Source: an uncultured Verrucomicrobiae bacterium
GTDB taxonomy: Bacteria > Verrucomicrobiota > Verrucomicrobiia > Limisphaerales > Palsa-1400
DNA: 64,000 bases
Direction of reading: 5' to 3'
Assembly (NCBI GenBank): GCA_963707025.1
Contig: CAVPOM010000004.1
Coordinates: 768,001-832,000 of the forward strand
Shown here piece by piece: positions 20,244 through 55,586 of the stretch (positions are counted from its first letter, which is position 1; the number at the start of each line of letters is the position of its first letter). The notes under the pieces were generated by a model. The model made no database searches and was not told the origin of the DNA. It was given only the letters and a program-made list of their open reading frames with translations. Made by a program: the position numbers and the translations under genes.

Positions 20244-21635
20244 AAACACCCATGAATCAAAACACGGCCGCCGCACGGCGGATGAACCTGAGCCGCCGGC
20301 GGTTTCTGCGCGGGCTGGGAGCTTGCATCGCCCTGCCGGCTTTTGAGTCTCTTGCCCCAATGCGCCTGCTGGCCGGCCCGGTGGCGGCGGCGGGAGCCGC
20401 GGGCCAGGCGGCGCCGGTCCGAATGGCGTTCCTCTATGTGCCCAACGGGATTATCCCGTCGGCCTGGTGGCCGGAAGGGAATGGGGGAACGGATTTTGAA
20501 CTGCCGCGCACGTTGCGGACGCTGCAGAAGGTCAAGGGCGAGGTGCAGCTCATCTCTGGATTGGAAGACCTCAGCGCCAATCCCGGCATGGACGGGGGTG
20601 GCGACCATGCGCGGGCTGGCGGCACTTTCCTGACCGGAGTGCGGATCAAAAAAACGGCGGGGTCGGACATTTTTGCGGGGGTTTCCTTCGACCAGTTGAT
20701 GGCGCAGCGGATGGGCCACCTGACGCGCTTTCCTTCCCTGGAATTGAGCTGCGATGCCATTCGCAAGGCGGGCGATTGTGATTCCGGCTATTCCTGCGCC
20801 TACGGATACAATTTGGCCTGGCGCTCGCCCACCCAGCCAGTCAGCCCGGATGCCAATCCGCGCCTGGTCTTCGAGCGGTTGTTCGGCGAGGGACCCGCCG
20901 GCCAGCGGAACATCAACCTGCAACGGCGGCAAAAGGAGCAACAATCCATACTGGACTTTGTGCTGACGGACGCCAAGGCGATGGAGGCCACCATGAACGG
21001 ACGGGACCGGCAGAAGCTGGATCAATACCTGACTAGCGTGCGCGAGATCGAGCAGCGCATCGAGAGGGCGGAGCGGATGCCCCTGGCCAACCCGGCTGGA
21101 GACGCCCCGGCTGGCATCCCTGCCAACTTCGGCGAGCACGTGCAGTTGATGCTGGACATGCTGCTGCTGGCCTTCCAGACCGATTCGACCCGCGTGGCCA
21201 CCCTCCTGCTGGCCGGGGAAGGGAGCAACCGCTCGTTTGCCGAGATCGGGATTTCGGAAGGGCACCATAATCTCACCCACCACCGAGACCAGCCGGACAT
21301 GATCGCCAAGGTGAAGGAGATTGATTTGTGGTATGCAACGCAGCTTGGAAAATTCCTGGAAAAAATGGACCGGAACCCAGGACGTCAACGGTCAATCTCT
21401 GCTGCACAACTCGATGATACTCTACGGTTCGGGCAATGCCGACGGCAACCGCCATACCCACACCAACCTGCCGATTCTGCTCGCTGGCTCCGCCGGCGGC
21501 GGCCTCAAGACCGGCCGCTATCTCAAAACCGAGCCGGCGCCCTTGACCAACTTGTTTCTGAGCATGGCGGACCGGATGGGTGTCCAGGGAATCGAACGTC
21601 ATGGTGATTCCACCGGGCGTCTGGCGGGGGTGTGA
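20240..21635 (+). CDS. DUF1552 (HxxSHH-like) protein, one frameshift near 21371
   Basis: Tat-like SRRRFL, GYSCAY, HHNLTHH. The C-terminus LLHNSMILYGSG...HGDSTG is in a different frame. Confidence 0.85.
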
Positions 21636-21658
21636 TTCGGAACGGCAAGACGGGCCAG

Positions 21659-21716
21659 ATTAGGATTAAGATTAGGATTAAGATTAAGATTAGGATTAGG
21701 ATTAGGATTAGGATTC
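21659..21716. repeat. ATTAGG/ATTAAG hexamer tandem repeat
   Basis: About nine units; shorter tracts near 9366, 40490, 46745, 50172, 55499. Confidence 0.9.
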
Positions 21717-21972
21717 AAGAGCCTGAGAAATGGCGGTGGTCATCGCCGGCGAAGGCAGACGCAAGATCGAGGATGGATTGCTACGGGCCGGCAGGCGCGG
21801 CCCGCAGCATCCCGATTCGGAATCGGGACGTGCCTTGGAAGAATGAAACAGCCTTCTGGCAATGCGCCCGGGCAACGAATGTTACAATTGGACGGCTTCT
21901 CCCAAGTCTTTGTGAATCAACCACATCAGATGCTTGAAGTTTTGTCGAGTTCGCCCCATATTATTGAAACTT

Positions 21973-23520: not shown

Positions 23521-23958
23521 ATTGATCCTTTGCATAAAACGTTGCTTTCTTTCGCGGATCCGATGCTTCCGCATCCGGCCCTGTTCCATCCGCGGCCCTC
23601 TGTCTTCCTATACGGTCGGATTGGGGTGATCTTGCACGCCATGGCGCCGGGAACGGGATTGATCGGTGGGAGGCGGGCGCGCGGGACACAGCCACCCTGG
23701 GATCAAACAAAGGCCGAGGCTCGAGGTCAAATCCGGCCGGGGGAATGCGGTCATCGTACTAATTACGTTGATTTCGCCGATTCTAAAAGCCGTCTTTCTC
23801 CCGCTGGAAACCTGTCATTTTCAGCCCGTCCAAAAGAGTGAGAAAGGAGATCTGCACTCGGGATGAACTGGGAAGGCATATTGCTGACCCGTTCGACCCT
23901 TCGATTGGTTTCGGGCTTGCTTATACCTCTTGGTAAGAGGTAAACTAAATTCAAAACA

Positions 23959-25155
23959 ATGAACATCGGCTATGAAAACTGGTGGTCCGGCGTGGTGCGA
24001 CTGGTGGCCGCTTCGGCCGCCCTGACGCTTTGTTCTTGTGCGGTTCATTCGCGCGGTGGGGACGGGCGATTATGGTTGAAGTCCACGATTAATGGAAAGC
24101 CCGCGCGCCTGGCCTTCGATACCGGGGCGGGCGTTCCCGTGCTCTTTGGCACGGCCCCCAAGAAGTTTGGCCTTTCTGTTACGAACATGCCGAATGTTGA
24201 ATCCCTCGGCCCCGATGTAATCCGAACTTTTACCGGGGAATGCAACGTGACGATTGAGCATTCGAAACTCCGAACCTGGTTTGGGGTTGTTGACGTGCCG
24301 CAGGGGATAGAATCGGATGCGGATGGCGTGCTGTGCTGGCGTTATCTAAAAGACAACATCATTGCCGTGGACGCGGTTCATGGAACCGTGAGCTTCTTGA
24401 ACTCGTTACCCCGAAAAGCGGCTGGTTGGACAAGACTCAGGCTCGTGACCAATTCCAATTCCGGTACGCTGATAATGACCGTGCCGCGGCCGGGCGACAC
24501 TCCGTACAGCGTTCTGGTGGATACCGGCTCCCGCCTTGGGGTTGCCCTTTTCCCCGACCAGTGGCAGGAGTGGAAGACAGCCCATGCAGACCAACCTGTG
24601 ACACTTACCGGTTCTGTTAATGCCTTTGATGGCTGGGTTGTGACAGAAGAAGGGTGGGCAAAAACACTGGCCATCGGCTCGTTATCGTTGACAAATGTCC
24701 CGGTAACGAAAGCCGACAAGCTTGATCTTCTACTCGGTTCCACCAATACCGTCGCAATGCTCGGAATGGAAGCGTTGAAACGGTTCGATCTGGTGATTGA
24801 CGGAAAAAAGGGCTTTGCCTACCTCCATGCCAAGGAGGGACCGCCGCCGCCATACGAATACAATCGTCTCGGAGCCGTTTTTGCGCCGCCAGATTTGGAG
24901 AGTGAGAATCTGGTGGCCAGCGTCGTTGCCGCCAGCCCGGCTTGGGAGGCGGGGATTCGACCCGGCGATGTTCTGACGCGCGTCGGGAACATGGATGTAA
25001 GAAATTGGCGCAAAGACCAGACCATTGGGCGGCGTCTCTGGCCGTTGCTGAGGCAACCGCCCGGAACCAAACTTGAACTTGCCGTGAGGCGCGGCGAAGA
25101 GCAAATCATCGGCCACGCTGTTCTGCGGCAAATTCTATCACCGGAGGCGAAGTAG
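23959..25155 (+). CDS. Double aspartyl-protease (retropepsin-like) plus PDZ protein
   Basis: Two DTG motifs (FDTGAG, VDTGS), LGMEALKRF, PDZ SPAWEAGIRPGD. Confidence 0.85.
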   Translation: MNIGYENWWSGVVRLVAASAALTLCSCAVHSRGGDGRLWLKSTINGKPARLAFDTGAGVPVLFGTAPKKFGLSVTNMPNVESLGPDVIRTFTGECNVTIEHSKLRTWFGVVDVPQGIESDADGVLCWRYLKDNIIAVDAVHGTVSFLNSLPRKAAGWTRLRLVTNSNSGTLIMTVPRPGDTPYSVLVDTGSRLGVALFPDQWQEWKTAHADQPVTLTGSVNAFDGWVVTEEGWAKTLAIGSLSLTNVPVTKADKLDLLLGSTNTVAMLGMEALKRFDLVIDGKKGFAYLHAKEGPPPPYEYNRLGAVFAPPDLESENLVASVVAASPAWEAGIRPGDVLTRVGNMDVRNWRKDQTIGRRLWPLLRQPPGTKLELAVRRGEEQIIGHAVLRQILSPEAK

Positions 25156-25268
25156 TAGAAAAGGGCACTATGTCGGTGTGTCGGTGTCCTCACTTTTTAT
25201 ACTCTTTAAATGAGAATCGGCGGTGGGAGAAAGCAGGCGGCGCGATCTCGCCTTTCCCACAAGAGCTC

Positions 25269-25417
25269 AAAATCCTCATTGCCCTTGCGCCCGCGCGCGA
25301 CCAACATCCAGCCATGCTGGCGCGTGTTTTATCCGCTGCGGTCAACGAAATCGAGGCCTTCACCGTGAAAGTGGAGGTCAATTGCGACTGGGGCAACGCG
25401 GTCATCGCGATTGCCGG
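25269..25417 (+). repeat. comM promoter/5'-end copy A (most diverged)
   Basis: ATG 25314 reads MLARVLSAAVNEIEAFTVKVEVNCDWGNAVIAIAG versus comM MLARVFSAAVNGIEAFPVEVEVNCGWGDTVVVIVG. Confidence 0.9.
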
Positions 25418-25472
25418 TTCCACTTTGCCCAAACAACCAACGGTTGGCCGCCCGCCACGCCGCCTGCGGCGC

Positions 25473-26972
25473 ATGCCGGTTTCTCGATTGCTGTCGTGGC
25501 TTGGCCGGTGGTCGCTTTTGTGCGGTCTTGGTTTCTTTCCTTCAATCTCGCGGGCAGCGTCAACAAATGAAATGATTTTGCGGGCCATGTCTGCGCTCCA
25601 GGCGGCCGCCCCGCGCGCCCAGTCCGATCCGGCCCGGCCCATTTTTCATATCACCGCTCCAGCCCAATGGATGAATGATCCCAACGGGCCGATTTATTAC
25701 CATGGCCTCTACCACATTTTTTATCAGTTGCATCCCTTCAGCGACGGAGATGGTCCCAAGTATTGGGGGCACGTCCGCAGCCGCGATTTGGTGAAATGGG
25801 AAGCTCTGCCCATCGCTCTGTGGCCTTCCACGGAGATGGGCGAAACCGGCGTCTGGTCCGGTTGCTGCGCCGTCAATGGCAGCGGCCAGCCGATGATCTT
25901 TTATACCAGCGTTGCCGCCGGACAATCTGCCCAAACCCACGCGGAACAGTGGGCGGCGCTGGGCGATGAAGATTTGATCACCTGGCGCAAATGTCCGGCC
26001 AATCCCATGCTTGCCGAATCCTTGCACGGGGCCAGGAAGATTTACGATTGGCGCGATCCCTTCATTTTTCACTACCGTCAGCGGACCTTTTTGGTGACCG
26101 GCGGCAACCTGAACCGGGCGCAAGGCGGACAGGCCGTCGTCAATATTTATGAGTCGGAAAATGCCGGGCTGACACAGTGGAAATATCGCGGCGTTCTTTT
26201 TCAAATTCCTGACGCGGAGGCGCGCACCGCCGAATGCCCCAACTTTTTCAATATCGGTGACCGTTGGGTCCTCCTGGTGTCCCCCTACGGCAAAGTGCAA
26301 TACTACGTCGGCGACTTTGACGCGGAAACGTGCCGCTTTCAATCGCGCGCGCGGGGCCTGGTGGATGTCGGGCCGAATTTTTACGCGCCAAACACCATGC
26401 AACTCGCCGATGGCCGGCGCATCATGTGGGGCTGGGTGAATGGTTTTCCGGGCGGCCACGGCTGGAAGGGCTGTCTGTCCCTCCCGCGCGTTCTGAGCCT
26501 GTCAAGCGATGGCCAACTGCGCCAAAGCCCCGCGCCGCAACTCCGCAAGCTGCGTGGCCCGGCCGTGATATGGCGAAACACCGCTCTGCGCGGCGATGGC
26601 GCCGCGTTTCGATTGCCGCAGACCAACGCGCTGGAAATCCAGGCTGACATTCTTTTGCGGACTTCAGACAGCGTTGTCCTTTCGTTAAGAAATGCCGCCG
26701 CCAACGCTTCGCCCGTCCTCATGAAGTTTAACGGTTCGGAATTCAAAATGGCGGACGCGGAAGGCCGGCTGTCCCTGGCCGGATCGGAACGAAAACTCGA
26801 CCTGCGCATTTTCATTGACCGCTCCGTGCTGGAAATCTTCGCCAACGATGCCTTGTGCGCGACGAAAGTAATTGCTCCGCTGGATGCCGGCGCCACGTTG
26901 CAGGTCAGTTCCCCGGACGGCTCCGCCCAGGCGAAGCTGGTCGAGGCCTGGCCCATGAAAACGATCTGGTGA
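25473..26972 (+). CDS. Glycoside hydrolase family 32 (beta-fructofuranosidase-like)
   Basis: WMNDPNG, WSG, RDP, ECP motifs; start uncertain. Confidence 0.92.
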   Translation: MPVSRLLSWLGRWSLLCGLGFFPSISRAASTNEMILRAMSALQAAAPRAQSDPARPIFHITAPAQWMNDPNGPIYYHGLYHIFYQLHPFSDGDGPKYWGHVRSRDLVKWEALPIALWPSTEMGETGVWSGCCAVNGSGQPMIFYTSVAAGQSAQTHAEQWAALGDEDLITWRKCPANPMLAESLHGARKIYDWRDPFIFHYRQRTFLVTGGNLNRAQGGQAVVNIYESENAGLTQWKYRGVLFQIPDAEARTAECPNFFNIGDRWVLLVSPYGKVQYYVGDFDAETCRFQSRARGLVDVGPNFYAPNTMQLADGRRIMWGWVNGFPGGHGWKGCLSLPRVLSLSSDGQLRQSPAPQLRKLRGPAVIWRNTALRGDGAAFRLPQTNALEIQADILLRTSDSVVLSLRNAAANASPVLMKFNGSEFKMADAEGRLSLAGSERKLDLRIFIDRSVLEIFANDALCATKVIAPLDAGATLQVSSPDGSAQAKLVEAWPMKTIW

Positions 26973-26999
26973 TGCTGCGCGCCCCATTCTTTGCTTAAG

Positions 27000-27108
27000 A
27001 AAACCGCATTGCCCTTGCGCCCGCGTTCCCCCAACATCCACCCATGCTGGCCCGTGTTCCGTCCGCCGCCGTCAATGGCATCGAAGCCCGCCCCGTCGAG
27101 GTGAAATC
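27000..27108 (+). repeat. comM promoter/5'-end copy B
   Basis: AAAACCGCATTGCCCTTGC...CAACATCCACCCATGCTGGCCCGTGTT...GTCGAGGTG. Confidence 0.92.
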
Positions 27109-27189
27109 AAGGCCGGATACCGGGGGAAGCCCAAGGTGGCTTACATCAAAGTCTCGCTTGAGGAACTGGCTTGAGGTATTTTTAAACCT

Positions 27190-27459
27190 ATGAAAGGAAA
27201 CACTGCGACGGTCGGTTACCGCTACATCACACGCCAGACGGGTGTGCGTGGCGGCCACTCCATCATCGAGGGTACGCGCGTCGGTGTCCACGACGTCATC
27301 AGCCTCCTCCAGAATGGTGAAACTGTGGACAGCGTGGTCACTCGGTGCTTCCCCAACATCACCCGCGCCCAAGTGTATGAGTGCCTGGCGTATTACGAGG
27401 ACCACCGCGGCGAGATTGACGTGCTGGTGGCTCGCCAGATGTCCGCGCCGACAGCGTGA
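27190..27459 (+). CDS. DUF433 antitoxin
   Basis: GVRGG.SIIEGTRVGV...VYECLAYY. Confidence 0.88.
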   Translation: MKGNTATVGYRYITRQTGVRGGHSIIEGTRVGVHDVISLLQNGETVDSVVTRCFPNITRAQVYECLAYYEDHRGEIDVLVARQMSAPTA

Positions 27460-27776
27460 AGTTCCTGCTCGACCACGACGTGCCGGATGACGCCGCCTTC
27501 TCGCTGGAGGCGCTGGGTCACGTCGTCGTCAAGCTGCGTGAAGTGCTGGGCGTCACCACCCCGGATGAGGAGGTGCTGCGGCTGGCTGGCGAGCGTGGCT
27601 GTGTGCTTATCACCTGTAATCGCGATGATTTTCTGGCTGCCGCCGGGCGCGTCGCGCACCACGGCATCATCATACTCATCCGCCGCAAGTCCAGGACGTT
27701 GGAGCGGGCGGCGTTGATCCGGCTGTTGGATTCCGCAGGGGAATCGGGCTTGAGCGGCAACATCAATTTCGCCTGA
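27456..27776 (+). CDS. DUF5615 PIN-like toxin
   Basis: KFLLDHDV...DEEVL...VLITCNRDDF; GTGA overlap with the antitoxin. Confidence 0.85.
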   Translation: MKFLLDHDVPDDAAFSLEALGHVVVKLREVLGVTTPDEEVLRLAGERGCVLITCNRDDFLAAAGRVAHHGIIILIRRKSRTLERAALIRLLDSAGESGLSGNINFA

Positions 27777-27857
27777 GCCACCTTTTTCAACGGATCGAAG
27801 GGTACCAGGCCATTTGGGAAAGCAGGTCACGCTCCCTCCCGCTTTTCCCAGCGGGGG

Positions 27858-27930
27858 CAAAAACCGCATTGCCCTTGCGACTGCGTTGGCCCAACCTCCA
27901 GGCATGGCGGCCCGTGTTTTCTCCGCCGCC
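27858..27930 (+). repeat. comM promoter/5'-end copy C (shortest)
   Basis: CAAAAACCGCATTGCCCTTGC...ATGGCGGCCCGTGTTTTCTCCGCCGCC. Confidence 0.9.
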
Positions 27931-27953
27931 AGGAAAAACTTCTTCTTTTGATT

Positions 27954-27977
27954 TGCCATTTGGCATGCCAAATGGCA
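27954..27977. promoter_or_regulatory. Perfect 24-bp palindrome, candidate TA operator
   Basis: TGCCATTTGGCATGCCAAATGGCA immediately upstream of the AbrB-type antitoxin. Confidence 0.65.
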
Positions 27978-27989
27978 TGGTTATGGGAA

Positions 27990-28241
27990 ATGGAAGCGGT
28001 TATTACGATGGATAAATTTGGGCGCATGGTCCTTCCCGGGCCAATGCGCAGGGCGCTCCAGATTTCCCGGCCCGCCGCCTTCAAGGCGGAAGTCATGGGC
28101 AACAAAGTGGAGCTGACTTTGGTCGCCCCGGAGCGAAGCGCGGTTTTGAAAAAGCGGCGGGGTCTGATCGTTGTTTCAACCGGCGGGCGAAAATTTAACG
28201 CGGCCGAGGCGGTGAGCGCCATGCGCGAGGAGCGATTCTGA
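27990..28241 (+). CDS. AbrB/MazE-type antitoxin
   Basis: ITMDKFGRMVLPGPMRRALQI. Confidence 0.8.
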   Translation: MEAVITMDKFGRMVLPGPMRRALQISRPAAFKAEVMGNKVELTLVAPERSAVLKKRRGLIVVSTGGRKFNAAEAVSAMREERF

Positions 28242-28660
28242 GCACCTATTTCGACACCTCGGCCCTGGTCGCTGCGATGGTTGAGGAGGAGGAGCATCAC
28301 GGTGCGGCCTTGAAGGCGCTCACCCGTCCCGGCGCCGCTTTTACATCCACTCATGCCCTCGCTGAAACTTTCGCCACCTTGACCAGCGGGCGCCTGGAGG
28401 TCCAGCTAACCCCGGTCGAGGCGGTACAAGTCATTGATGCGAACGTCGTCCGACGGCTTCGAGTCGTTGACTTGCGTTTGAGTGACTATCAGCAGGCGAT
28501 GCGAAACAGCCACACGGTTGGCGCGCGTGGCGGCGCGATTTTTGACATGTTGCATTTACAGGCGGCGCGCCGGGGAGCTGCGAAACGCATTCTCACCATT
28601 AACGTCCGGCACTTTCAAACATTCGCGCCTGACCTGAAAAACATCATCTCGCTGCCATAG
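28238..28660 (+). CDS. PIN-domain (VapC-like) toxin with CTG in the start position
   Basis: CTG-STYFDTSALVAA...LAETFATLT...IFDMLHLQAA...TINVRHF. Confidence 0.8.
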   Translation: MSTYFDTSALVAAMVEEEEHHGAALKALTRPGAAFTSTHALAETFATLTSGRLEVQLTPVEAVQVIDANVVRRLRVVDLRLSDYQQAMRNSHTVGARGGAIFDMLHLQAARRGAAKRILTINVRHFQTFAPDLKNIISLP

Positions 28661-28685
28661 CCTCGCAACACCCACAGCGGCTCTC

Positions 28686-28830
28686 GCAAAAACCGCATTG
28701 CCCTCGCGCCTGCGTTGGCCCAACATCCATCCATGCTGGCCCGTGTTTTCTCCGCCGCCGTCAATGGCATCGAAGCCTTCCCCGTCGAGATGGAGGTCAA
28801 TTGCGGGTGGGGCGACACCGTGGTCGTAAT
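28686..28830 (+). repeat. comM promoter/5'-end copy D
   Basis: ATG 28733 reads MLARVFSAAVNGIEAFPVEMEVNCGWGDTVVV. Confidence 0.95.
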
Positions 28831-29782
28831 GTTGTCTTGTGATCTCCCCCCCGGCTCTGGCCCGAACGGCTCCAAGTTGAGACTTGTCGTGTCTGCTTTC
28901 GAAATTCAGTCTTTTTTGTGGCGCAAAATGAATCCGATTAGGGACGCAGTTTAATCTGGGTCCCCGTTACGTAACGTGCATAATAGCCCTAGCCGAAACA
29001 ATATGGACTCAAATCGCGGAAATTTCCTTTGTTCCTCGTGGTTAATCATCAAGTGGCTGCTCCCGTTATCGCTGCTTCTCGCGACTGGTTGCAATGGAGG
29101 ATCCTCTTACGACATTATTTGGATAAATGAGTCAGACGTAAAGATCAATGATGTCAGCGCGCAAATTGGCCGCGAACAGGCTTCGTGCGGAGGCTTGATG
29201 GCGAAAGGACAAGCTGGTTACGGACTCTTTGTATTTCCATTGCCGGAAACGGCCTCCGTAACGTGGCGGGGTTCAAACGGGAACAAGCATGACGTGAAAG
29301 TTCAAGTGGCCAAGCTTGCCCCGCCCAATTTTAGACGTGGCACGGTCCAGTTCCGAATTCACGCAGATAATTCGGTGAGCGTGACATTTCGCATTTTTGA
29401 TTCGCCAGAGAAGCCTTCGCAAGAATACATTCCTAACGAATCATCAGAGCAACTCGCCCTTCGGAAGGCTGGGAATGCCCTGTTCGAAGCCATTGCCAAT
29501 GGAGACACAAACAGCATTCTGACGGCTTTAGCGGCTGGGGTTGACATTAATCGTCCGATCAATGGACTGAGAGGGTGGACTCCTCTGGGGCGGGCTGCCA
29601 GTACTGGACGGTTGGATGTGGCGAAACTGCTGCTCCAACGCGGTGCCAAGCCAAATAACGCCTTGTATTTTGCCGCTCGAGACGCAGATGCGGGGATGAT
29701 AAGTCTTCTCTCGAAGCAGGGAGCAGATGTTAACTTTGCCGAACCTGAACAGGATACCGCGCTTATCGTGGCCATCTCTAAT

Positions 29783-31276
29783 TGAGGTGGACCCCATCCT
29801 TTAGACCACGGAGCGCATGAAATAAGCGCGACTTTTGCCGATTGCTGTCATTACTAATTGTAGTTGACTACTGTTCATTCCGTGTTTCAAAACCCTTTCG
29901 AAAAGAGAGAACGAGCGATGCGGAGCACTGCCCGTCCTCCCTCTCCGTTTTCTTAGGGTTCTCAACTCTACCGCCGCAGGCGGTCTGATTTCAAGCCTTT
30001 TCCTGCCGCCTGCCTCTCTGTCAAGTGCTGCGATCGCTCCTGCCTCTGGCAGGTTGCATCGCTTCCCATTTGGCCGGTTGGGCTCCATGCGTGCCGGGAT
30101 CAAAATACGCGTCCGCCGGCGTCGCATAGCCCAACGCCTGGTGCGGTCGTTCCCGGTTGTAGCCGTCAAACCACCGGCCCAGTCCGCGCCCTGCCGCCAA
30201 CCCGTCGCCATAGTCTTGCAAATAAATGTCCTCATACTTGGCGCTCCGCCACAGCCGCTCGATAAACCGGTTGTCCATCCAGCGACCCCGTCCGTCCATG
30301 CTCACGTCCACCCCCGCCGATTCCACCGCATCGATAAACATCGGGGAGGTGAACTGCGATCCCTGGTCGGTATTGGAAATCAACGGCGCCTGACGCCCCG
30401 CCCGCAACGCCGCCTCCCAAGCGTCCACACAAAAGTCCGCCTCCAACGTGTTGCTCAAGCGCCATCCCAGCACGTAACGACTCCGCCAATCCATCACCGC
30501 CACCAAATACATAAACCCAGTTGCCATAGGCACATACGTAATGTCCGAACACCAAACCTGATCCGGTCCCGTCACTGCCAAATTGCGTAACAGATACGGA
30601 TAAATCTGGTGCCCCATCTCCCGCAGACTCGTCTTGGGCTTGGCGTAAATCGCCTCGATCCCCATCAACCGCAGCAGCCGCACCACCCGTTTGCGATTGA
30701 TGGTCAAACCCTCCCGGCGCAACAGCACGGTCAGTTTGCGGCTGCCATAAACCGGGTGGTCCAAATGCATCTGGTCCAACCGCCGCATCAGCGCCAGGTT
30801 CTCCTCTGTCTCCGGACAGCACTGGTAATAATAACTGCCACGGCACACCGCCAGCAGCTCGCACTGGCGCCGCACGCTGAGCTGCGGATCGGGAGCGATT
30901 AAACATGTTAAAGCCCCAGTTGCCTGGACTTTTTTTTAAGCCAGTCCAAGTCCACCGTCAGTTGGCCAATCTTCTCATGCAGTTGGGCAATCAACTGTTC
31001 CTGATCCTCCGTGCGGGGTTGCCCGGGCTCAAACAATTCGGGCATGTGATCCCGAATCGTCGCCCGCCACTGCGTGACCTGCGCCGGATGCACCGCATAC
31101 TCTCGCGCCAATTGCGCGACCGTCTTCAGCCCCACCAGGGCTTCGAATCCCACTTTGGCCTTGAAGGCCGCACTGTGTCTTTTCCGTTTTGCTTTCATAA
31201 GTCTGCTCTTTCTTATCTACAGCAAACCGGCAAAAATCGAAACTTACCTGTGGTCTAAAAATAGGGGTCCAGCTCA
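29783..31276 (-). mobile_element. IS3-family insertion sequence (1494 bp)
   Basis: TIRs TGAGGTGGACCCCATCCTTTAGACCAC and TGAGCTGGACCCCTATTTTTAGACCAC; 3-bp duplication AAT. Confidence 0.95.
30021..31198 (-). CDS. IS3 transposase OrfAB (-1 frameshift)
   Basis: OrfA 31198-30908; A8G slippery site at 30937-30929; OrfB with WCSDITY, DQGSQF, IERLWRS (DDE). Confidence 0.93.
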
Positions 31277-31659
31277 AATCATCGCATTGCCAATGCTCGC
31301 CAATTGCTCGACCTCGGTGCGAATGCAAACAAACCAGGGGTGAATCAGATAACTCCCATTCATGCTGCAGCCGTTCAGGGAGAGCTAGAAATTGCAGAGT
31401 TACTGCTTCAGCTTGGAGCAAACCCCAACACGCCAGATGTAGATGGTATCACTCCGCTGTCGATCGTCGGTCAGATCGTTCGAGATACGGCCGACGGTCC
31501 CAAGAGGCAACAGTACGAGAAGGTCATGAGCTTTCTGCGTCAGAGCGGGGCCAAGAAGTAATTCAATTTCTCCCAAACTTCACACGTCGTGCGGAGCAAA
31601 TTAGGCGTCAGTTCCTAAAAGAAAACAAGGGAAAGGAGACGGTCAATGGTTTTCTCATA

Positions 31660-32811
31660 TTATTCTTGATTGCGACCTGACGCCTCCCGGTAGATGGCTC
31701 CGGGCTTCAGCCGCTCGGCATAGGACATCAACATGAACATGGACAGTTGCGTCACCTTGGGCGCGCCATCGAAGACCGAAGATTCAAGTTGCCGCATGTC
31801 CTGGTCGCCCTTTGTCAACAATGTTTTATCCTGCGGGAGATGGCGGGAGAAGATGTATTCGTGAAAGGGCAGTCCGCCGAATTTCATGCCCCAGCCTTTG
31901 GTGACCGGCCAGGGCCGCTGCGCCAGGGGCAGGGCCTGTTGCCCGGTGATCCAATGGAAACACCAGGCGACATTGGCCGCCGCCGCTTCCTGGCGCGCCT
32001 GGTCCTTGATGATGAAGGGCCAGCCCGCCGAATAACATTCCATGACATACATGAGCATGGCCGGGCCTTGCTCGGAAAGCGGGAAGGGCTGGGGCTTGGT
32101 CAAATCCCACTGATCCAGCCAGTCCGTCACCCGCAGGGCGCAGTGCAGGTAACGCTCGTCGCCGGTCTCCTTGTAAAGCAGGAAGGAAAGGGAGCCAAAA
32201 ATGCCCGAACTGCACCACCATTCATCGCTGGATTGATGCCACAATCCGTCGGTCACGCCGCCGGAGGGCCTGATGTAATTGCTCATGACCAGCCCGGCGA
32301 ATTTTTGCACCGAGTCAACAAGATGTTGCCGCTCGGCGCCGGGGCAACGCACGGCGGTGGCCAGCACGGCCATGCCGATGGAGGAACTGTCCGCCACGTA
32401 CCAATCCCCATTGGTCTGGCCCGGCTGGCGGTTGTAGTGCATATAGTAGGCGCCGGCGGGAACCATTTTGTCTTGAAATGCAACCATCCGCCCGGACCAT
32501 TGGCGGGAGGCATCCAGATATTTTTGGTTGCCTGTCAAGTCGTAGGCGGCGCAGAGGGCGCGAACCGCATAGGAATCCACGAAGAAAGAGCCGGCGCTGT
32601 TGGTGTCGGTGACCTTGGCCGCAGCCAGGTCGCAAAGCTGGAGGAACTGGGCGCGGAATTCGGCGGGGGGAGCCTCCTGCGCGCGCGCCGACGCCAGGAG
32701 AAGGGCCGCCATCAAGGCCAGCGGGAGCCGGCGGGAGAAAAGGGGGAGGACCGGCCATGCGCTCAAAACTGGTGGCTGCTGGTGAGGGGGGAATTGCGTC
32801 GCGTTCGGCAT
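31660..32811 (-). CDS. Secreted hypothetical protein, possible (alpha/alpha)6 glycoside-hydrolase-like fold
   Basis: Signal-like segment; AYDLTGNQKYLDA and LYKETGDERYL repeats; start uncertain. Confidence 0.55.
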   Translation of the reverse strand: MPNATQFPPHQQPPVLSAWPVLPLFSRRLPLALMAALLLASARAQEAPPAEFRAQFLQLCDLAAAKVTDTNSAGSFFVDSYAVRALCAAYDLTGNQKYLDASRQWSGRMVAFQDKMVPAGAYYMHYNRQPGQTNGDWYVADSSSIGMAVLATAVRCPGAERQHLVDSVQKFAGLVMSNYIRPSGGVTDGLWHQSSDEWWCSSGIFGSLSFLLYKETGDERYLHCALRVTDWLDQWDLTKPQPFPLSEQGPAMLMYVMECYSAGWPFIIKDQARQEAAAANVAWCFHWITGQQALPLAQRPWPVTKGWGMKFGGLPFHEYIFSRHLPQDKTLLTKGDQDMRQLESSVFDGAPKVTQLSMFMLMSYAERLKPGAIYREASGRNQE

Positions 32812-32873
32812 TGGAAAACCATGACGCAAAGACCAAACCATGTCCAATTCTTTTAGGTCTGGGTCATTGTCCT

Positions 32874-33095
32874 GGGCGCATCTTGACACCGTTCTTAATT
32901 GTTGGGGAGCGCCCGCGCCTCGCGGGCAGTGGTCGGCGCCCTCGCCGACCACCCTTCCACGTTCAGCCTTCGCTTTCGCAGATGCCTGAAATCAAGACTG
33001 ACCGGCGAGGGCGCCGGTCAGCACATCCCGATTCCGAATCGGGACGTATGCTCCCCGTGCATTCCGGTTTGCAAGAACAGTGTTGAGATGTGCCC
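32874..33095. mobile_element. MITE-like element with REP-like interior
   Basis: Ends GGGCGCATCTTGACACCGTTCTT and GGGCACATCTCAACACTGTTCTT resemble the 49773 element; no target duplication seen. Confidence 0.6.
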
Positions 33096-33148
33096 CCAAA
33101 CCGCAATTCTCCAACCCCGCTCTTGACACGCGCCGCCCCGCCCCATAA

Positions 33149-34594
<1,446 letters not shown>

Positions 34595-34599
34595 TCCGC

Positions 34600-35010
34600 A
34601 TGCCCGCCACCTTAAAACTGGACATCGTCACCCCCGACGCCGTCACCTTTTCCGGCGACGTCGAAATGGTCACCCTGCCCGCGGTGGAAGGGGAGATGGG
34701 CGTCTATCCCCAGCATCTGCCCCTCATGACTCAACTGGTCCCCGGCGAACTCATCGTCCGCCGCGACGGCCATGACCTCTACATGGCCGTGGGCGACGGT
34801 TTCGTCGAAGTCACCGCCGACCATGTCGCGGTCCTGACCGACATGGCCATCCCGGCCGATCAGATTGATGAAGCCAAAGCCGAGGAAGCCCGGCAGCGCG
34901 CCGAAGCCCGCTTGGCCGAACACTTGGACGACGAACAAACCGCCACCGTCCACGCCGCCCTGGCCAACTCCGTGGCCCAACTGGCCGTCAAACGCCGCCG
35001 CCGCCACTGA
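34600..35010 (+). CDS. atpC: F1 ATP synthase epsilon subunit
   Basis: LDIVTPD, GEMGVYPQH, GFVEV; follows atpD. Confidence 0.95.
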   Translation: MPATLKLDIVTPDAVTFSGDVEMVTLPAVEGEMGVYPQHLPLMTQLVPGELIVRRDGHDLYMAVGDGFVEVTADHVAVLTDMAIPADQIDEAKAEEARQRAEARLAEHLDDEQTATVHAALANSVAQLAVKRRRRH

Positions 35011-35079
35011 TAACTTTGGAGCGGCGGTCTGCGGCCGCCGCCATTTTCCTTTGGCCCGGCCCGCCCCAACCGCCGGATC

Positions 35080-35841
<762 letters not shown>

Positions 35842-35842
35842 A

Positions 35843-37597
35843 GTGAACTGGGACCAACTCAAGACCATTCTCTGGCTGCGCTGGCGGCTGACGCGCAACC
35901 AGATGACCCGCAGCAAAGGCACCGCCGCCGTCGCCGCCATCGTGGCCGGGGGCGTCTGTGTGCTGGGCGGGGCCAGCTTCGTTGCGGCCTTGCTCGGCGG
36001 GATGCAGGCCCTGGCCCAGGCCAAACCGGTCGTCGTTTGGGCAGTCTGGTTCGGCGTGACTCTGCTCTTCCTGTTTTTTTGGATGATCGGCCTGCTCCAG
36101 GAAATCCAGCGCTCGGAGAGCATTGACCTCCAGCGCCTCCTCCATCTGCCCGTGGCCCTGGGCCAGATGTTCGTCATCAACTACCTGGCCTCCCATCTGG
36201 CCGTCAGCATCGTCCTCTTCGTGCCCGCGATGATGGGACTGGCCATTGGCCTGGCCATTTCGCGCGGCCCCGCCATGCTGCTGCTGGCGCCGCTGGCCTT
36301 GGGCATGGTCTGCATGATCAGCGCCTGGACTTATTGCCTGCGCGGTTGGCTGGCCATGTTGATGAGCAACCCGCGCCGGCGCCGCAATATCACCATGGCC
36401 ATCGTCCTGGCCTTCATCCTTCTGGGCCAGGCCCCCAACCTCTACTTCAACGTCTTTCACCGATACAATGTCCCCAAGACCAGCGCCTCGCCCCAACAAA
36501 CCAAACAACAGATCCAGGCGTGGAACAGCCACAATCAGCAAACGTTCGACCAACTCCGCTGGGTCCAGAAGTTTATTCCGCCGCTCTGGCTGCCGCTCGG
36601 CGCCCAGGCGCTGGCCGAAGGACGCGCCCTGCCCGCCTTGCTCGGCACACTGGGTTGCTTTGCCATGGCGGCGCTGGGCCTGCGGCGCGCCTATCGGGGC
36701 ACCCTGCGATTTTATCGCGGCGAATCCGGCGGGAAAGCCGCCGCGCGGATTGAACCCCGCCCCACACCGGCCGCCGGCCTGGCCCCGGCCAAAGCCGGAA
36801 GGCGTTTCCTCGAACTGCGCCTGCCCGGTGTGCCCGAACAAGCCGCCGCGCTCGCGCTGGCCACTTTCCGCTCCTTGCTCCGCGCGCCCGAAGTCAAAGT
36901 GGCGTGGGCGACTTCGATCCTCATCCCGCTGATCGTGGGCGGGTCGCTGCTGTTCCGCTCCACCATGAGTTTGCCCGAGGCCGCCAAACCCTTCATGGCC
37001 ACGGGCGCCGTGGTGTTCTCCGTCTTTATGCTGGTTCAATTCTTCGCCAATCAATTCGGCTTCGATCGCGACGGTTTCCGGGTCTTGATTCTTGCGCCCG
37101 CCGACCGGCGGCTCGTTCTGCTGGGCAAAAACCTCGCCTGCCTGCCCGTGGGCGCCACCTTCGGCCTGCTGCTCCTGCTGTTGATTGCGCTGCGGCTGCA
37201 CCTGTCCCCGTTGCTGCTCCTGGCCGCCCTTTTCCAACTGCCCGCCGTGCTCCTGCTGGCCGGCGTCGGCGGCAACATGCTCTCCATTCTCGTGCCCTAC
37301 GGCATTCAACAAGGCACGATGAAGCCGACCAAAATGCCCGGTGCGGCCATGTTGGTGCTGATGGGTTGCCACCTGCTTTTTCCCTTGGCCATGGCACCGG
37401 TGTTCGTGCCGCCGCTGGCCGGGTTTCTCTGCCAAATGGCCGGCGGGCCAAGCGCCGTGCTGGTCAACCTGATCCTCTCCGCCGCCCTGGCCGCGCTAAC
37501 GGCGTTGCTTTACTGGCAGGCCCTGGGTCCGCTGGGCCGTCTGCTGCAACGTCGCGAAACCAGGATTCTCGGCGTCGTGACCGCCGAGGTGGAATAG
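35843..37597 (+). CDS. ABC transporter permease (multi-TM)
   Basis: Many TM segments, NQFGFDRDG, adjacent to the ATPase. Confidence 0.8.
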   Translation: MNWDQLKTILWLRWRLTRNQMTRSKGTAAVAAIVAGGVCVLGGASFVAALLGGMQALAQAKPVVVWAVWFGVTLLFLFFWMIGLLQEIQRSESIDLQRLLHLPVALGQMFVINYLASHLAVSIVLFVPAMMGLAIGLAISRGPAMLLLAPLALGMVCMISAWTYCLRGWLAMLMSNPRRRRNITMAIVLAFILLGQAPNLYFNVFHRYNVPKTSASPQQTKQQIQAWNSHNQQTFDQLRWVQKFIPPLWLPLGAQALAEGRALPALLGTLGCFAMAALGLRRAYRGTLRFYRGESGGKAAARIEPRPTPAAGLAPAKAGRRFLELRLPGVPEQAAALALATFRSLLRAPEVKVAWATSILIPLIVGGSLLFRSTMSLPEAAKPFMATGAVVFSVFMLVQFFANQFGFDRDGFRVLILAPADRRLVLLGKNLACLPVGATFGLLLLLLIALRLHLSPLLLLAALFQLPAVLLLAGVGGNMLSILVPYGIQQGTMKPTKMPGAAMLVLMGCHLLFPLAMAPVFVPPLAGFLCQMAGGPSAVLVNLILSAALAALTALLYWQALGPLGRLLQRRETRILGVVTAEVE

Positions 37598-37626
37598 CCG
37601 CCATGCCCGGCATCGTCGCCGTCTGT

Positions 37627-39153
37627 TCACGTCCACAATTGTCTGTCCAGCGACCGATACTGGATGGCTTCGGCGATGTGATCGCCCGCCAGGTTCTCCG
37701 CGCCGGCCAGGTCGGCGATGGTGCGGGCCACTTTCAAAATGCGGTCGTAGGCGCGCGCGCTCAAATTCAAATCGGCCATGGCGAACTTGAGCAGCTCCTT
37801 GGTCGTCTCATCCAGCGCGCAGTAGCTCTTCAATTCGCGCGGCCCCATCCGGGCATTGCAGGTCACCGTCCGTTTGTGGGCAAAGCGGGCCTGTTGCCGT
37901 GTCCGGGCCGCCACCACCCGCGCGCGGATGGTGGCCGAATCTTCCCCCGTCCGTTCGCTGCTGATTTCGCGAAACTTGACTTGCGGCACTTCGATATGCA
38001 GATCAATTCGATCCAGCAAGGGGCCGGAGATGCGGCCCAGGTAATTCTGAATCTCGCGCGCCGAACTGCGCGACTCCCCCGGCATTTTTCCATCCGGCGT
38101 CGGATTCATGGCCGCCACCAGCATGAATTGGGCTGGAAAGGTCATGCTGCCGGCCGCCCGCGAGATGGTGACCCACCCCTCCTCCAGCGGCTGACGCATC
38201 GTTTCCAAAACGCCGCGTTTGAACTCCGGCAGTTCGTCCAGGAACAAAACACCGTGGTGCGCCAGCGATATCTCGCCGGGCGTGGGATTGGCATTGCCTC
38301 CCAGCAAACCGGCGTCGCTGGCGGTGTGATGGGGCGTGCGGAATGGACGGCGCGTGACCAGCGCCTGTCCGGGTTTGAGCAGCCCGACGATGCTGTGAAT
38401 CTTGGTCGTCTCCAGGGCCTCCTCCAAAGTCAATGGCGGCAGAATGGTGGTCAGCCGTTTGGCCAGCATGGATTTGCCGGTGCCCGGCGGACCGATCAGC
38501 AGCACATTGTGGCCGCCGGCCGCCGCGATCTCCAGGGCGCGTTTGACCGATTCCTGCCCCTTCACCTCCGCCATGTCAATTTCTTCGTCGTAAGGCTGGT
38601 CAAATATTTTGGTCAGATCCACCGTCGTCGGCTCGATCTTGATATCCCCTTCCAAAAATCCGACGGCCTCGCGCAGGTTGGCCACCGGAATCACTTTCAA
38701 TCCCTTGACCACCGCCGCCTCCGCCGCATTTTCCGCCGGCACCAGCAGCCCGGCCTTGCCTTCCGCGCGGGCCCGCCAGGCGACCGGCAAGACTCCTTTG
38801 ACCGGGCGAACGGCGCCATCCAGGGCCAACTCGCCCACCATCACAAAGTTTTCCAGTTGGTCGCCGCGCAACTGCTCGCTGGCCCCAAGCATGCCGAGGG
38901 CGATGGGCAAGTCAAAGCTCGGCCCTTCCTTTTTCACGTCCGCCGGCGCGAGGTTGATGGTCGTCCGGCCCATCGGAAATTTGAAACCGGAATTGGTCAG
39001 GGCCGTGCTCACCCGGTCGCGCGACTCCTTGACGGCGGCATCCGGCAATCCCACGATGACGACCACGGTGTCGCCCCACCCGCAATTGACCTCCACCTCG
39101 ACAGGGAAGGCTTCGATGCCATTGACGGCGGCGGAGAAAACACGGGCCAGCAT
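37627..39153 (-). CDS. comM: ComM/YifB Mg-chelatase-like AAA+ ATPase (intact copy E)
   Basis: IVGLPDAAVKESRDRV, NLAPAD, GPPGTGKS, LFLDELPEF, SGPLLDRID, LSARAYDRILKVARTIADL. Confidence 0.95.
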   Translation of the reverse strand: MLARVFSAAVNGIEAFPVEVEVNCGWGDTVVVIVGLPDAAVKESRDRVSTALTNSGFKFPMGRTTINLAPADVKKEGPSFDLPIALGMLGASEQLRGDQLENFVMVGELALDGAVRPVKGVLPVAWRARAEGKAGLLVPAENAAEAAVVKGLKVIPVANLREAVGFLEGDIKIEPTTVDLTKIFDQPYDEEIDMAEVKGQESVKRALEIAAAGGHNVLLIGPPGTGKSMLAKRLTTILPPLTLEEALETTKIHSIVGLLKPGQALVTRRPFRTPHHTASDAGLLGGNANPTPGEISLAHHGVLFLDELPEFKRGVLETMRQPLEEGWVTISRAAGSMTFPAQFMLVAAMNPTPDGKMPGESRSSAREIQNYLGRISGPLLDRIDLHIEVPQVKFREISSERTGEDSATIRARVVAARTRQQARFAHKRTVTCNARMGPRELKSYCALDETTKELLKFAMADLNLSARAYDRILKVARTIADLAGAENLAGDHIAEAIQYRSLDRQLWT

Positions 39154-39201
39154 GGGAGGATGTTGGGCCAACGCAGGTGCAAGGGCAATGCGGTTTTTTG
39201 C
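39154..39201 (-). promoter_or_regulatory. Putative comM promoter, possibly leaderless
   Basis: TTGCCC-17 nt-CAACAT then 6 nt to ATG, no SD; largely conserved in all copies (inference). Confidence 0.5.
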
Positions 39202-39336
39202 GCCCACAGGGAAGATTCCGTTTGGTGCTGCCAGGCACGTGTCCACCATCAACCAATTTCAACCTGAGGGCGGAGAAATGAAATAACTTGGCAATAGTGG
39301 GGAAAGGGTGGAAATTCAAAGCAACGAATTGAACTT

Positions 39337-39555
39337 ATGGCTGCTTTAACTTTAGATCGCGTTCTCACCGAAGCCGAAGCGTTGCCCGCGGACGAGCAGG
39401 AAATGCTCGAAAGCCTTTTGCGCCGGCGTCGCATAGAAACGTGGCGGCGGAAAACGGCGGTGGAGGCCAAGCGCACCATCAGAGCTTTTCGCGCCGGAAA
39501 ATTGAAAAGCCAATCGGCTGAAAGCCTCATCGCCAGCCTGCGCAAGAGCAGATGA
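39337..39555 (+). CDS. Putative antitoxin
   Basis: 72 aa, LDRVLTEAEALP.DEQEML; upstream of a RelE-like toxin. Confidence 0.7.
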   Translation: MAALTLDRVLTEAEALPADEQEMLESLLRRRRIETWRRKTAVEAKRTIRAFRAGKLKSQSAESLIASLRKSR

Positions 39556-39558
39556 GTC

Positions 39559-39843
39559 ATGGCCGAGCTTGTTGCCACGACCAAGTTTGAACGGGCGTTC
39601 CGTCGCCTGATCGGGAAAAACCCCGCGCTGCAACCGCAAATCGAAACGGCTCTGCGGCGGCTGACGGAAAACCCCAATGATTCCCGCCTAAAAACGCATC
39701 ACTTGAGCGGGCGACTGGCCGGACTACACGCCTGTTCCGCCGGTTACGATTGCCGGATTGTTTTTGCGCAGGAGAAACATCCCAAAACCGGCGCGGAAGT
39801 TTTGCTGCTCATCAACATCGGCTCGCATGAGGAAGTCTATTGA
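39559..39843 (+). CDS. RelE/YafQ-superfamily mRNA interferase toxin
   Basis: FERAFRRL...LKTHHLSG.L.G..ACS..YDCRIVF...NIGSHEEVY. Confidence 0.85.
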   Translation: MAELVATTKFERAFRRLIGKNPALQPQIETALRRLTENPNDSRLKTHHLSGRLAGLHACSAGYDCRIVFAQEKHPKTGAEVLLLINIGSHEEVY

Positions 39844-40060
39844 AACCCGAATTGGTCAGGGCCGTGCTCACCCGGTCGCGCGACTCCTTGACGGCGGCAT
39901 CCGGCAATCCCACGATGACGACCACGGTGTCGCCCCACCCGCAATTGACCTCCACCTCGACAGGGAAGGCTTCGATGCCATTGACGGCGGCGGAGAAAAC
40001 ACGGGCCAGCATGGATGGATGTTGGGCCAACGCAGGTGCAAGGGCAATGCGGTTTTTTGC
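39840..40060 (-). repeat. comM promoter/5'-end copy F
   Basis: About 221-bp direct repeat of 38981-39201 with about 3 mismatches by eye. Confidence 0.97.
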
Positions 40061-40118
40061 GGCTTCAGCACGGAAAGTGGGAATTGATCTGCCGGAAGAC
40101 CGCTGACCGACTCGCTCA

Positions 40119-40349
40119 CAATACTACCAAGCATACAACATTCGTGGTTGCTCGAAGATTGTCCTCAACGATTTCAGTGGAGCGCTCGCTGATTTGAATA
40201 TGGCTGTTCAGTTAAATCCGAATGATACGAGGAGCTATCGGCTTCGTGGCACGGCGTAGCATTTCTTAGATGATGAGGCAAGCGCGAAAGCGGACTTGGA
40301 TACAGCGGCCAAACTTGACACGCAAAACAGCAGCGTGAAGTTAAAATAG
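40119..40349 (+). pseudogene. TPR-repeat gene fragment with internal stop
   Basis: AYNIRGCSKIVLNDFSGALADLNMAVQLNPND..SYRLRGTA*..ASAKADLDTA; TAG at 40257. Confidence 0.65.
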
Positions 40350-40538
40350 GAAGCATAAATGTGTTTGTAGATGAGTGCAGGTCGGCCTCAGGGGTTTTGG
40401 AGAACCGTCTTCGATAGCGATTTCTTTCGCATGGGGATTTCATTCGTCGGGAGTCGGAACGCGGAGGGAGGATGAGGAATGGAGATTAGCATTAGGATTA
40501 GGATCAGGATTAAGACTAGGAGAATACATGACGGAGGA

Positions 40539-46757: not shown

Positions 46758-46794
46758 GGGATCGGCGCGCAAGGCGATGACGGCCAGGGGCGGG
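46758..46794 (-). repeat. 37-bp exact duplicate of the glgB 3' end
   Basis: GGGATCGGCGCGCAAGGCGATGACGGCCAGGGGCGGG is identical to 47501-47537. Confidence 0.92.
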
Positions 46795-46848
46795 TTGGAG
46801 GACGAGGGCAATTGCAGGGTTGTCTTTCTCGCAAAGGTGGGTTTAATT

Positions 46849-47067
46849 ATGGGCATGAAAAAGCATGCCATCGTGGTGGTTGACCCGGAAATCATGAGTG
46901 GCGAGCCCTGCTTTGCCGGCACGCGTGTTCCGGTGCGGGCGTTGCTGGATTACATTGAAGGCGGCGAGACGCTCGACGAGTTCCTGGAGCAATATCCCAC
47001 GGTTTCGCGCAAGCAGGCGGTGGATTTTCTGGAACAAGGCAGCGAACGGCTGCTCGCCACCGCCTGA
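46849..47067 (+). CDS. DUF433 antitoxin
   Basis: DPEIMSGEPCFAGTRVPV...GETLDEFLEQYP. Confidence 0.9.
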   Translation: MGMKKHAIVVVDPEIMSGEPCFAGTRVPVRALLDYIEGGETLDEFLEQYPTVSRKQAVDFLEQGSERLLATA

Positions 47068-47073
47068 AATTCA

Positions 47074-47415
47074 ATGTGCGCCTTCCGCATCCTGCTGGAC
47101 GAATGTCTCCCGAAGGATTTGGCGCGTGAACTTCCCGGCCACACCGTCAAAACCGTTCCGCAAGCCGGTTGGGCCAGCGTCAGCAACGGCAATCTCCTTC
47201 GTCTCATCGCCGACTCCCACAAATTTGATGTGTTTTTGACCATGGATAAACGGCTCCCGCAAGAGAACCCAACCCGGCGGCTCCCTTTTGCCATTGTCGT
47301 CTTGCGCGCCAAGTCCAACTGAATGGTTCATGTCTTCCCCTTTGCACCGGAAATCCTGCGCCGCCTTGCCGAATTTCAGCCGGGTCACGTCTATGTCTTG
47401 ACGCAGCCGGATTGA
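47074..47415 (+). pseudogene. DUF5615 PIN-like toxin with internal TGA
   Basis: ILLDECLP...FLTMDK; TGA at 47320, then the frame continues for 30 codons. Confidence 0.75.
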
Positions 47416-47491
47416 ACGCGCCGAGCGGCCAGCACCACTTCGCGGGGTGAGGGAATTCGGTCGAGCCGCAGGCTCGACGCTCCACCTTGCG

Positions 47492-50133: not shown

Positions 50134-50216
50134 TACTCTGCAGGGATGCGGCTCAGAGGTTTTCGGAGAGTAAGATTAGGATTAAGATTAAGATTGGGAG
50201 GAGGAGCAACGGAGGA

Positions 50217-52127: not shown

Positions 52128-52140
52128 ACGGCCGCCGGGT

Positions 52141-55474: not shown

Positions 55475-55586
55475 AAAGGTTTAGTGGGGAGGGGGAAAGA
55501 TTAAGATTAAGATTAAGAGTAGGATTAAGGAGGGGCCATCGCGGTTTGGTTGGGCGGGCGCAAGAGGGGAAAGGGATTGGTTTCCA

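Follow-up and report, generated by a model that had tools for sequence, protein, structure and literature searches.

The window carries a stack of truncated comM starts

The locus analysed here lies in a 64,000-nt stretch of DNA (hereafter the window) from an uncultured Verrucomicrobiae bacterium (contig CAVPOM010000004.1, positions 768,001 to 832,000), in which an intact copy of the competence gene comM is accompanied by truncated copies of its own upstream region and 5′ end, which we refer to as stumps. The intact gene (copy E; 37627–39200, minus strand) encodes 508 amino acids from an ATG at 39153, carries a conserved upstream region of ~47 nt, and served as the register against which the mismatches of each copy were counted. 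The upstream region could be read as a leaderless promoter (−35, 17 bp, −10); a sigma-70 consensus scan placed it below threshold and called no promoter. A repeat search and genome-wide BLAST returned five truncated copies, which together with copy E occupy the positions given for six copies in a preliminary description of this DNA. Four lie on the plus strand, each opening with the upstream region: copy A (25267–25412; ~33 codons; 35 mismatches over the 146 nt from −47 to ~99, identity 0.76), copy B (26997–27100; ~19–20 codons; 13 over the 104 nt from −47 to 57, 0.875), copy C (27857–27930; 9 codons; 10 over the 74 nt from −47 to 27, 0.865) and copy D (28686–28848; 95 nt of coding sequence followed by 21 nt of other origin, described below; 8 over the 142 nt from −47 to 95, 0.944). 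The fifth, copy F (39840–40059, minus strand), retains the upstream region and 173 nt, and with 3 mismatches over the 220 nt from −47 to 173 (98.6% identity) it is the youngest stump. These values reproduce both the order of divergence judged earlier by eye (A > B~C > D > F) and the estimate of about three mismatches in 221 bp for copy F. Over the 74 nt common to A, B, C, D and F, mismatches to E number 16, 10, 10, 6 and 2, respectively, and copies D and F form inverted repeats of 97% identity over 143 nt. Beyond the six copies described earlier, we found a further degenerate and older stump at 23.7 kb (copy Z; 23717–23854, plus strand), the oldest of the series, in which coding nt ~55–96 (23717–23758) are followed by an attachment-site (att) arm of the kind we call type 1 and ~70 nt of element-end or dispersed-repeat sequence; its match to comM has an nhmmer E-value of 0.2 and its match to the arm profile, which itself includes Z, one of 3e-12. 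A genome-wide search for scattered copies returned only short, weak matches outside the window: three pieces of the 5′ region (35–45 nt, all on contig C4) and two of the comM 3′ end (32–42 nt), in a genome of 6.96 Mb.

Each stump is paired with unrelated cargo. Copy Z is followed by an aspartyl protease gene with a PDZ domain (23959–25155, plus strand; Pfam PF13650 and PF17820), copy A by a GH32 hydrolase (25572–26972, plus strand) with which the ATG of A (25314) is in frame, copy B by a toxin-antitoxin-like DUF433/DUF5615 pair (27190–27776, plus strand), and copy C by an AbrB-like and PIN pair (27972–28660, plus strand), the AbrB-like member being named by eye with no Pfam match. The cargo of D is an ankyrin lipoprotein gene of low G+C content (29003–31561, plus strand; 0.52, compared with 0.63 for comM), split by an IS3 insertion sequence at 29783–31276 with a 3-bp target duplication. 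The cargo of F, an antitoxin-like gene and a RelE/YafQ-like (YafQ/ParE-like) toxin, runs opposite to comM (39337–39843, plus strand), and its junction lies at the toxin stop codon with 5 nt of microhomology. Five of the six cassettes are thus co-directional with the upstream region's putative promoter. Pfam agreed with the cargo named earlier (GH32, DUF433/DUF5615, PIN, ankyrin, YafQ/ParE-like toxin). The earlier remark that the window holds no integrase stood insofar as no site-specific recombinase was found there by Pfam; a DDE transposase is present in the IS3.

Between the D cassette and copy E lies a block of host genes (31660–37597; GH76-like, atpD, atpC, ABC ATPase, permease) whose orientation, like that of E and F, is reversed compared with the congener G003. 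Copies A–D are opposite in strand to E and F because of this inversion of the atpD-comM block. Most simply, Z-A-B-C-D-F-E would originally have formed one co-oriented stack, and a late inversion of ~8.5 kb would have separated Z–D from F–E in the window genome, or the flip may have arisen in assembly at the D/F repeat.

The stack is ordered and its cassettes are shared between genera

In G003, the same stump A, GH32 gene and junction of GH32 to copy B are followed by 16 nt of B, a different toxin-antitoxin-like pair and comM. Copy B was therefore once the live start, and in each of the two lineages a different cargo interrupted it, at a different point. G003 carries neither Z nor its cargo at the orthologous place, a loss that would fit deletion between repeats. 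The earlier proposal of a time-ordered stack, in which an old 5′ end is left behind, cargo is added and the upstream region and gene are restored, was upheld by this layout and by the polarity seen in relatives: stumps sharing a locus with comM all lie upstream of it and co-oriented (24 of 24).

The GH32, DUF433, AbrB/PIN and RelE cassettes each adjoin comM stumps in other genera at 84–92% identity. GH32 also lies behind comM stumps in G003 (89%) and in G024 (85%), where it keeps the upstream region though the stump is only 3 codons long; the DUF433/DUF5615 pair also precedes a stump in G025 (86%); and the AbrB/PIN pair lies directly before copies of the upstream region in G008, G014 and G019 (86–92%). 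The RelE junction at comM nt 173 is common to G001 and G008, with junction and cargo 87–90% identical, and the RelE cassette is also found away from comM stumps. For the ankyrin and protease cassettes there was no match among the loci compared. That copy F is 98.6% native despite its shared junction points to a recent re-entry by way of comM 5′ homology, or to gene conversion.

Stacking is a family trait specific to comM

We surveyed 30 genomes of the family, whose members are soil and peat bacteria, and 30 from other families of the same order with the comM 5′ region as query. Two or more matches were found in 21 of the 30 family genomes, one in 7 and none in 2; outside the family, where the query is less sensitive, 1 of 30 genomes had several. 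Repeating the search with native queries yielded one 42-nt extra copy over the comM start in family f16 (13 of 14 genomes matched) and one truncated extra comM copy in family f31 (8 of 10 matched). As controls, atpD gave a second match in 1 of 30 family genomes, and ntrC-like and yraN queries gave a truncated extra start only in the window genome among those of the family. The stack is thus a family trait and is specific to comM.

Sixty loci chosen for their comM matches, together with the window, provided 95 distinct stumps from 21 genomes, of which 61 start with the conserved upstream region. The locus stretches favoured the upstream side of comM; whole-genome matches agree, save three that lie hundreds of kb away (G019, G020). 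Cargo in the relatives' stacks consists mostly of toxin-antitoxin pairs and lone genes. Among 147 neighbouring open reading frames (ORFs) of the relatives we found a 66-aa tyrosine-recombinase remnant, which lies near a scar and by eye resembles an unrelated RIT-type end, and no serine recombinase. Two loci of different genera (L040 in G025 and L082 in G026) have an identical comM start and stump, from recent transfer or binning overlap.

About a third of stump ends bear apparent serine-recombinase scars at codon 32

The ends of 37 of the 95 stumps fall at comM nt 90–110, compared with 6.9 expected if ends were uniform over nt 10–300, and 33 stumps were assigned one of four shared downstream motifs (32 after inspection, one being spurious). 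Seven left (attL) and three right (attR) halves of the type-2 scars meet at a GT at comM nt 94–95, in codon 32; the exact core of the type-1 scars is less certain. Type-2 arms are palindromic at 15–19 of 21 positions, versus 10 of 21 for the host attB control. Palindromic arms around a 2-bp core are the attP anatomy of large serine recombinases. G175, a genome from outside the family but within the order, has its comM interrupted at this GT core. Only ~100 bp separate attR from the start of a gene for a 551-aa serine recombinase, the arms are palindromic at 14 of 21 positions in register (2–7 when shifted), and the arm matches the family scars at 23, 19 and 16 of 32 positions. The attB sites of three published clusters, their cores judged by eye, lie in the same I/V-V-G-L-P-D stretch of comM, and that study reports comM as the target of 12.4% of site-specific integrases (PMC10083194). 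Given the palindromic arms at the GT core, the G175 element at the same core and the agreement with published attB sites, about a third of the stump ends are, as far as sequence anatomy can tell, attL scars of large-serine-recombinase elements at codon 32. The earlier view of simply variable break points, unlike integrase junctions, must be revised for this third. Stump ends outside codon 32 are one-off junctions; the nt-27 end of copy C recurs in three other stumps, with different sequence downstream.

Within the window, copy D runs to the GT core in codon 32 and continues into a type-2 attL arm (28828–28848) that matches the reverse complement of attR arms from G002, G003 and G008 at 16–17 of 21 positions. 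Copy Z bears a type-1 scar and copy A a degenerate one, the arm being clearer in the G003 orthologue of stump A. Copies B, C and F have junctions of a different kind, and F keeps the whole attB around codon 32.

Elements that disrupt comM are also present in relatives. A 59-kb element resembling an integrative and conjugative element splits comM at codon ~351 in G015 (L147, G015:C1:1514812-1574049) and encodes a 500-aa serine recombinase whose ORF overlaps attL; a comM 3′ half in G021 begins at the same site. Incomplete assemblies hold only pieces of comM in G002 and G024 and none in G004. In the attR halves examined, including that of G175, the bare arm comes first, with no replacement promoter or comM 5′ end; these elements therefore break comM. 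Serine recombinases matching Pfam PF07508 occur in 21 of 31 genomes; the window genome has five such hits, all outside the window. Four patterns, for arms or a putative attP, had no match in viral contigs, a scan with the G175 recombinase gave no confirmed relative, and a scan with the comM N-terminus gave five loci, with a scar in none of the four checked.

Several candidates near the scars were rejected. Order-wide arm patterns matched 8 and 2 of 401 genomes (a tally that includes G334), and the three out-of-family matches inspected were due to chance. A conserved stretch of ~90 nt after the scars was considered as a long attP arm and discarded, its distal part being a dispersed repeat in G015. 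A Tn7-like (AbaR) insertion was dismissed, the 5 bp at the ends being inverted rather than direct and no Tns match being found among the scanned ORFs. Separately, we note a dispersed intergenic repeat of ~60 nt that lies near toxin-antitoxin and other cargo and after many att scars (in G015, L180, L191 and L195–L197); it also occurs, inverted, before copy A of the window (25178–25215).

Gene ends are duplicated elsewhere in the genome

A scan of 3849 genes of the window genome for copies of their ends within 15 kb, which includes some paralog artefacts, found 5′-end copies upstream and co-oriented for 12 genes (3 downstream, 2 opposite) and 3′-end copies downstream and co-oriented for 18 genes (5 upstream, 1 opposite). 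At least 9 of these duplications lie around cargo that by eye is toxin-antitoxin or restriction-like. Events of insertion with long target duplication are therefore common in the lineage, and comM is their extreme. At yraN, which encodes the partner nuclease of ComM, a native 5′ stump after rnhB is followed by cargo and then by a live copy whose N-terminus is foreign (G000:C13:123361-125418; L228, L255), the duplication spanning 132 nt at 95% identity. Two 5′ matches of clpX were rejected as stumps and belong to a small zinc-finger gene.

Some related arrangements were seen in passing. In the window, a 37-nt exact direct repeat at 46758–47537 duplicates a 3′ end that is glgB-like by eye around a DUF433 pair, a small case of insertion with target duplication like the comM cassettes. 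Two long unrelated genes have a comM-like N-terminus and are apparently in-frame stump fusions (G000:C4:135987-138131, L221; L061:6101-7231). A gene that by eye is peptidase-like lies between comM upstream-region and coding pieces 386 kb from comM (G000:C4:419058-421324, L222) and may be an old dispersed cassette. Between clpP and clpX, a 108-aa gene consists of two ClpX zinc-finger domains (G000:C6:92132-92458, L211).

Break and repair of comM as the probable source of the stack

The codon-32 serine-recombinase scars, the disruptive elements in relatives, the polarity of the stumps and the shared cassettes are observations from which any account must start. We consider it probable, by a modest measure, that the stack records a ratchet in which elements break comM and donor DNA repairs it. 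As the att anatomy shows, large-serine-recombinase elements enter the GT in codon 32 and split comM, leaving the upstream region, 95 nt and an element arm (attL). Recovery of comM would then come not from excision of the element but from recombination with a neighbour's DNA ordered cargo, upstream region, comM. The right crossover would be homologous and within comM. On the left, joining would take place either in the end of the element or in the remaining old 5′ part, aided by microhomology, by a dispersed repeat or by a stump of the donor that matches. The element would thereby be lost, the old start kept as a stump, and the donor's cargo placed between the stump and the new start; an element excised cleanly, or removed by two-sided curing, would go unrecorded. 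One-sided joining with no prior element would yield stumps such as B, C and F, which have no att scar, as well as the single duplications scattered among other genes. Cassettes would thereafter be gained, lost and reshuffled by homologous recombination, as is seen in part: comM 5′ sequence stands on both sides of every cassette, so that the same cargo and junctions recur elsewhere in other genera. Natural transformation is the likeliest route for the DNA, and the competence genes comEC, dprA and yraN are present in the genome. We count the anatomy at yraN, including the foreign N-terminus on its live copy, as support for this account.

A number of points weigh against this account. The repair step is deduced from its products, the genomes compared holding no strain pair from one species, and competence of the host is predicted from its genes. 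In Acinetobacter, recombination tracts over comM are reported to be no more frequent than chance (PMC11472951). The gradient of divergence noted in the preliminary description is clear in the window genome and flat in G001 and G028; the near identity of F and E could be gene conversion; and of 72 stumps compared with 21 references, only 24 match the comM of their own genome best. An arm motif is missing from 62 of the 95 stumps, and many of the type-1 scars may descend by copying from a small number of ancestral ones and so not mark integrations of their own. A search by PF07508, through wider loci and by protein sequence placed no recombinase gene beside a codon-32 scar in the window or the family.

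The stumps could alternatively be what is left of decayed, non-disruptive elements that each came with its own substitute for the upstream region and the 5′ end of comM, so that comM was never broken and all but a few cargo genes were lost. The live upstream sequence does differ from the genome's own stumps in G018, G025 and G029, and the distal motif after the scars also stands, inverted, before ~6 of 78 upstream-region copies. That motif, however, is a dispersed repeat in G015, every attR half examined is devoid of a replacement start, the elements of G175 and G015 are disruptive, a palindromic attP cannot also encode codons 25–31, and the non-att stumps would be left unexplained; we therefore regard such elements as an unlikely source. 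Generic duplication by itself, to which we give an equally low standing, would draw on the ~30 same-polarity gene-end duplications among the 3849 genes and on the majority of stumps that end with no arm motif, but it accounts neither for stacking at comM alone across the family nor for the presence, at a single site, of four or more distinct types of arm.

The preliminary description had favoured an integron-like capture array, formed perhaps by homology-anchored illegitimate recombination or by a trans-acting recombinase. In a dedicated system of this kind, a trans-acting recombinase would add circular cassettes at the comM start and a trapped promoter would express them. A shared cassette pool in differing orders, the upstream region kept with GH32 even behind the 3-codon stump of G024, and two cases of cargo fused in frame to the comM start are in keeping with such a system. 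It nevertheless appears very improbable and we did not retain it: the 147 neighbouring ORFs include no conserved adjacent recombinase, cassette ends are not a common site, the RelE cassette occurs away from comM stumps, and cargo orientation is 34:21 with the upstream region and 16:11 without it. Promoter trapping as a selective force was set aside, these orientation counts showing no clear bias. The 97% inverted repeat of 143 nt formed by D and F could flip the inversion, and that alone, in assembly; as the origin of the stack itself, an assembly artefact is scarcely credible, given that the copies differ by 1–24% and that their junctions recur in independent assemblies.

Relation to known systems

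Break and repair would combine parts that are largely known, in a combination that we did not find described. Stacked comM 5′ stumps were not found in the open full-text literature, as judged from listings and with subscription papers outside the search. The nearest relatives are the large-serine-recombinase elements that integrate into comM, which share the gene and, in three published clusters, the same codon stretch (Durrant et al., PMC10083194; Croucher et al., PMC4774983; Mazzamurro et al., PMC11472951); the likeness extends to palindromic attP arms, a 2-bp core and disruptive integration in G015 and G175. Here, the elements are gone, comM is whole, and a stack of scars with small cargo remains, whereas the passages on those elements deal with disruption and salvage and contain no stack. 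The fixed 2-bp core and palindromic arms of such recombinases are both found at the codon-32 scars, and an adjoining recombinase only in G175.

Insertion with long target duplication (Furuta et al., 2010; PMC2853133) likewise involves long, variable direct duplications with no mobility gene, mostly in competent species. Copies F and E agree with its definition (direct repeats >30 bp, insert <20 kb, no mobility gene), forming 220-nt repeats around 640 bp; as for an empty target in a close strain, the one genome to compare was the congener G003, which has different cargo at the site. The events there are single and concern restriction-modification genes, whereas those at comM are repeated at one gene family-wide, carry mostly toxin-antitoxin cargo and end in att scars in a third of cases. 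The immunity arrays of type VI secretion systems (Kirchberger et al., 2017; PMC5361080), and the Rhs arrays cited there, resemble the stack in being time-ordered, with a one-sided homologous anchor and no integrase, and in that homologous recombination later spreads entire arrays. At comM, in contrast, polarity is reversed, elements attack the anchor, which is a housekeeping gene of competence, and the cargo is unrelated to the function of that gene.

Two further systems offer parallels, each with its differences. Integrons hold an ordered array with the newest cassette next to the anchor and a shared pool rich in toxin-antitoxin genes, and in these respects the comM stack is alike. Unlike integrons, the stack has no IntI, no attC-like common cassette site and no clear orientation bias: next to the array no IntI tyrosine recombinase was found in the window, the 66-aa remnant being the one case among the relatives' 147 ORFs, and no common site follows each gene, junctions varying and 62 of 95 stumps having no shared motif (no attC model was applied). 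SXT/R391 elements at prfC supply a replacement 5′ end and leave the displaced 5′ fragment upstream of the restored gene. The displaced fragment is the likeness; the difference is that attR here brings no new promoter or 5′ coding part, as seen in right halves, no type-1 element having been found whole.

Possible roles of the stack

Two relatives carry element insertions in stumps rather than in live genes. A type-2 attR in G008 lies inside a stump whose end is the RelE junction at nt 173 that is also present in the window and in G001. For G002, the end of a right half is a junction at nt ~230 that an unbroken stump of G001 shares. Because these halves end at shared stump junctions, the stumps came first and the elements hit dead copies. 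It is possible, if doubtful, that the stack is adaptive: stumps extending past codon 32 would serve as decoy attB sites that spare the live comM, and the repeated start would act as a universal homology adapter for a recombinase-free cassette platform. On such terms copy F may be an unhit decoy, decoy attachment sites would be suggested as a host defence, and the cassette platform would be run by the very pathway that comM serves.

Breakage of comM by mobile elements blunts transformation, and rescue by recombination has been proposed (PMC11472951). Under break and repair, the locus would be a countable, ordered record of comM breakage and rescue across one family, and the stack would make the open question of bacterial comM rescue testable. 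The scarred locus also becomes a gateway through which toxin-antitoxin genes and further cargo common to several genera come in.

Other features of the window

The atpD and atpC genes (33188–35010) lie apart from the other ATP synthase genes and are followed by the ABC ATPase and permease. What by eye is the remnant of a TPR-like gene occupies 40100–40350, just upstream of copy F and close to an endpoint of the inversion. Short tandem arrays of a 6-nt unit occur at gene ends at 9334–9383, 21634–21725, 40472–40533, 50150–50205 and 55481–55542, and the interval 50866–53571 holds two tandem paralogous segments, ~1.66 kb apart and 74–79% identical.

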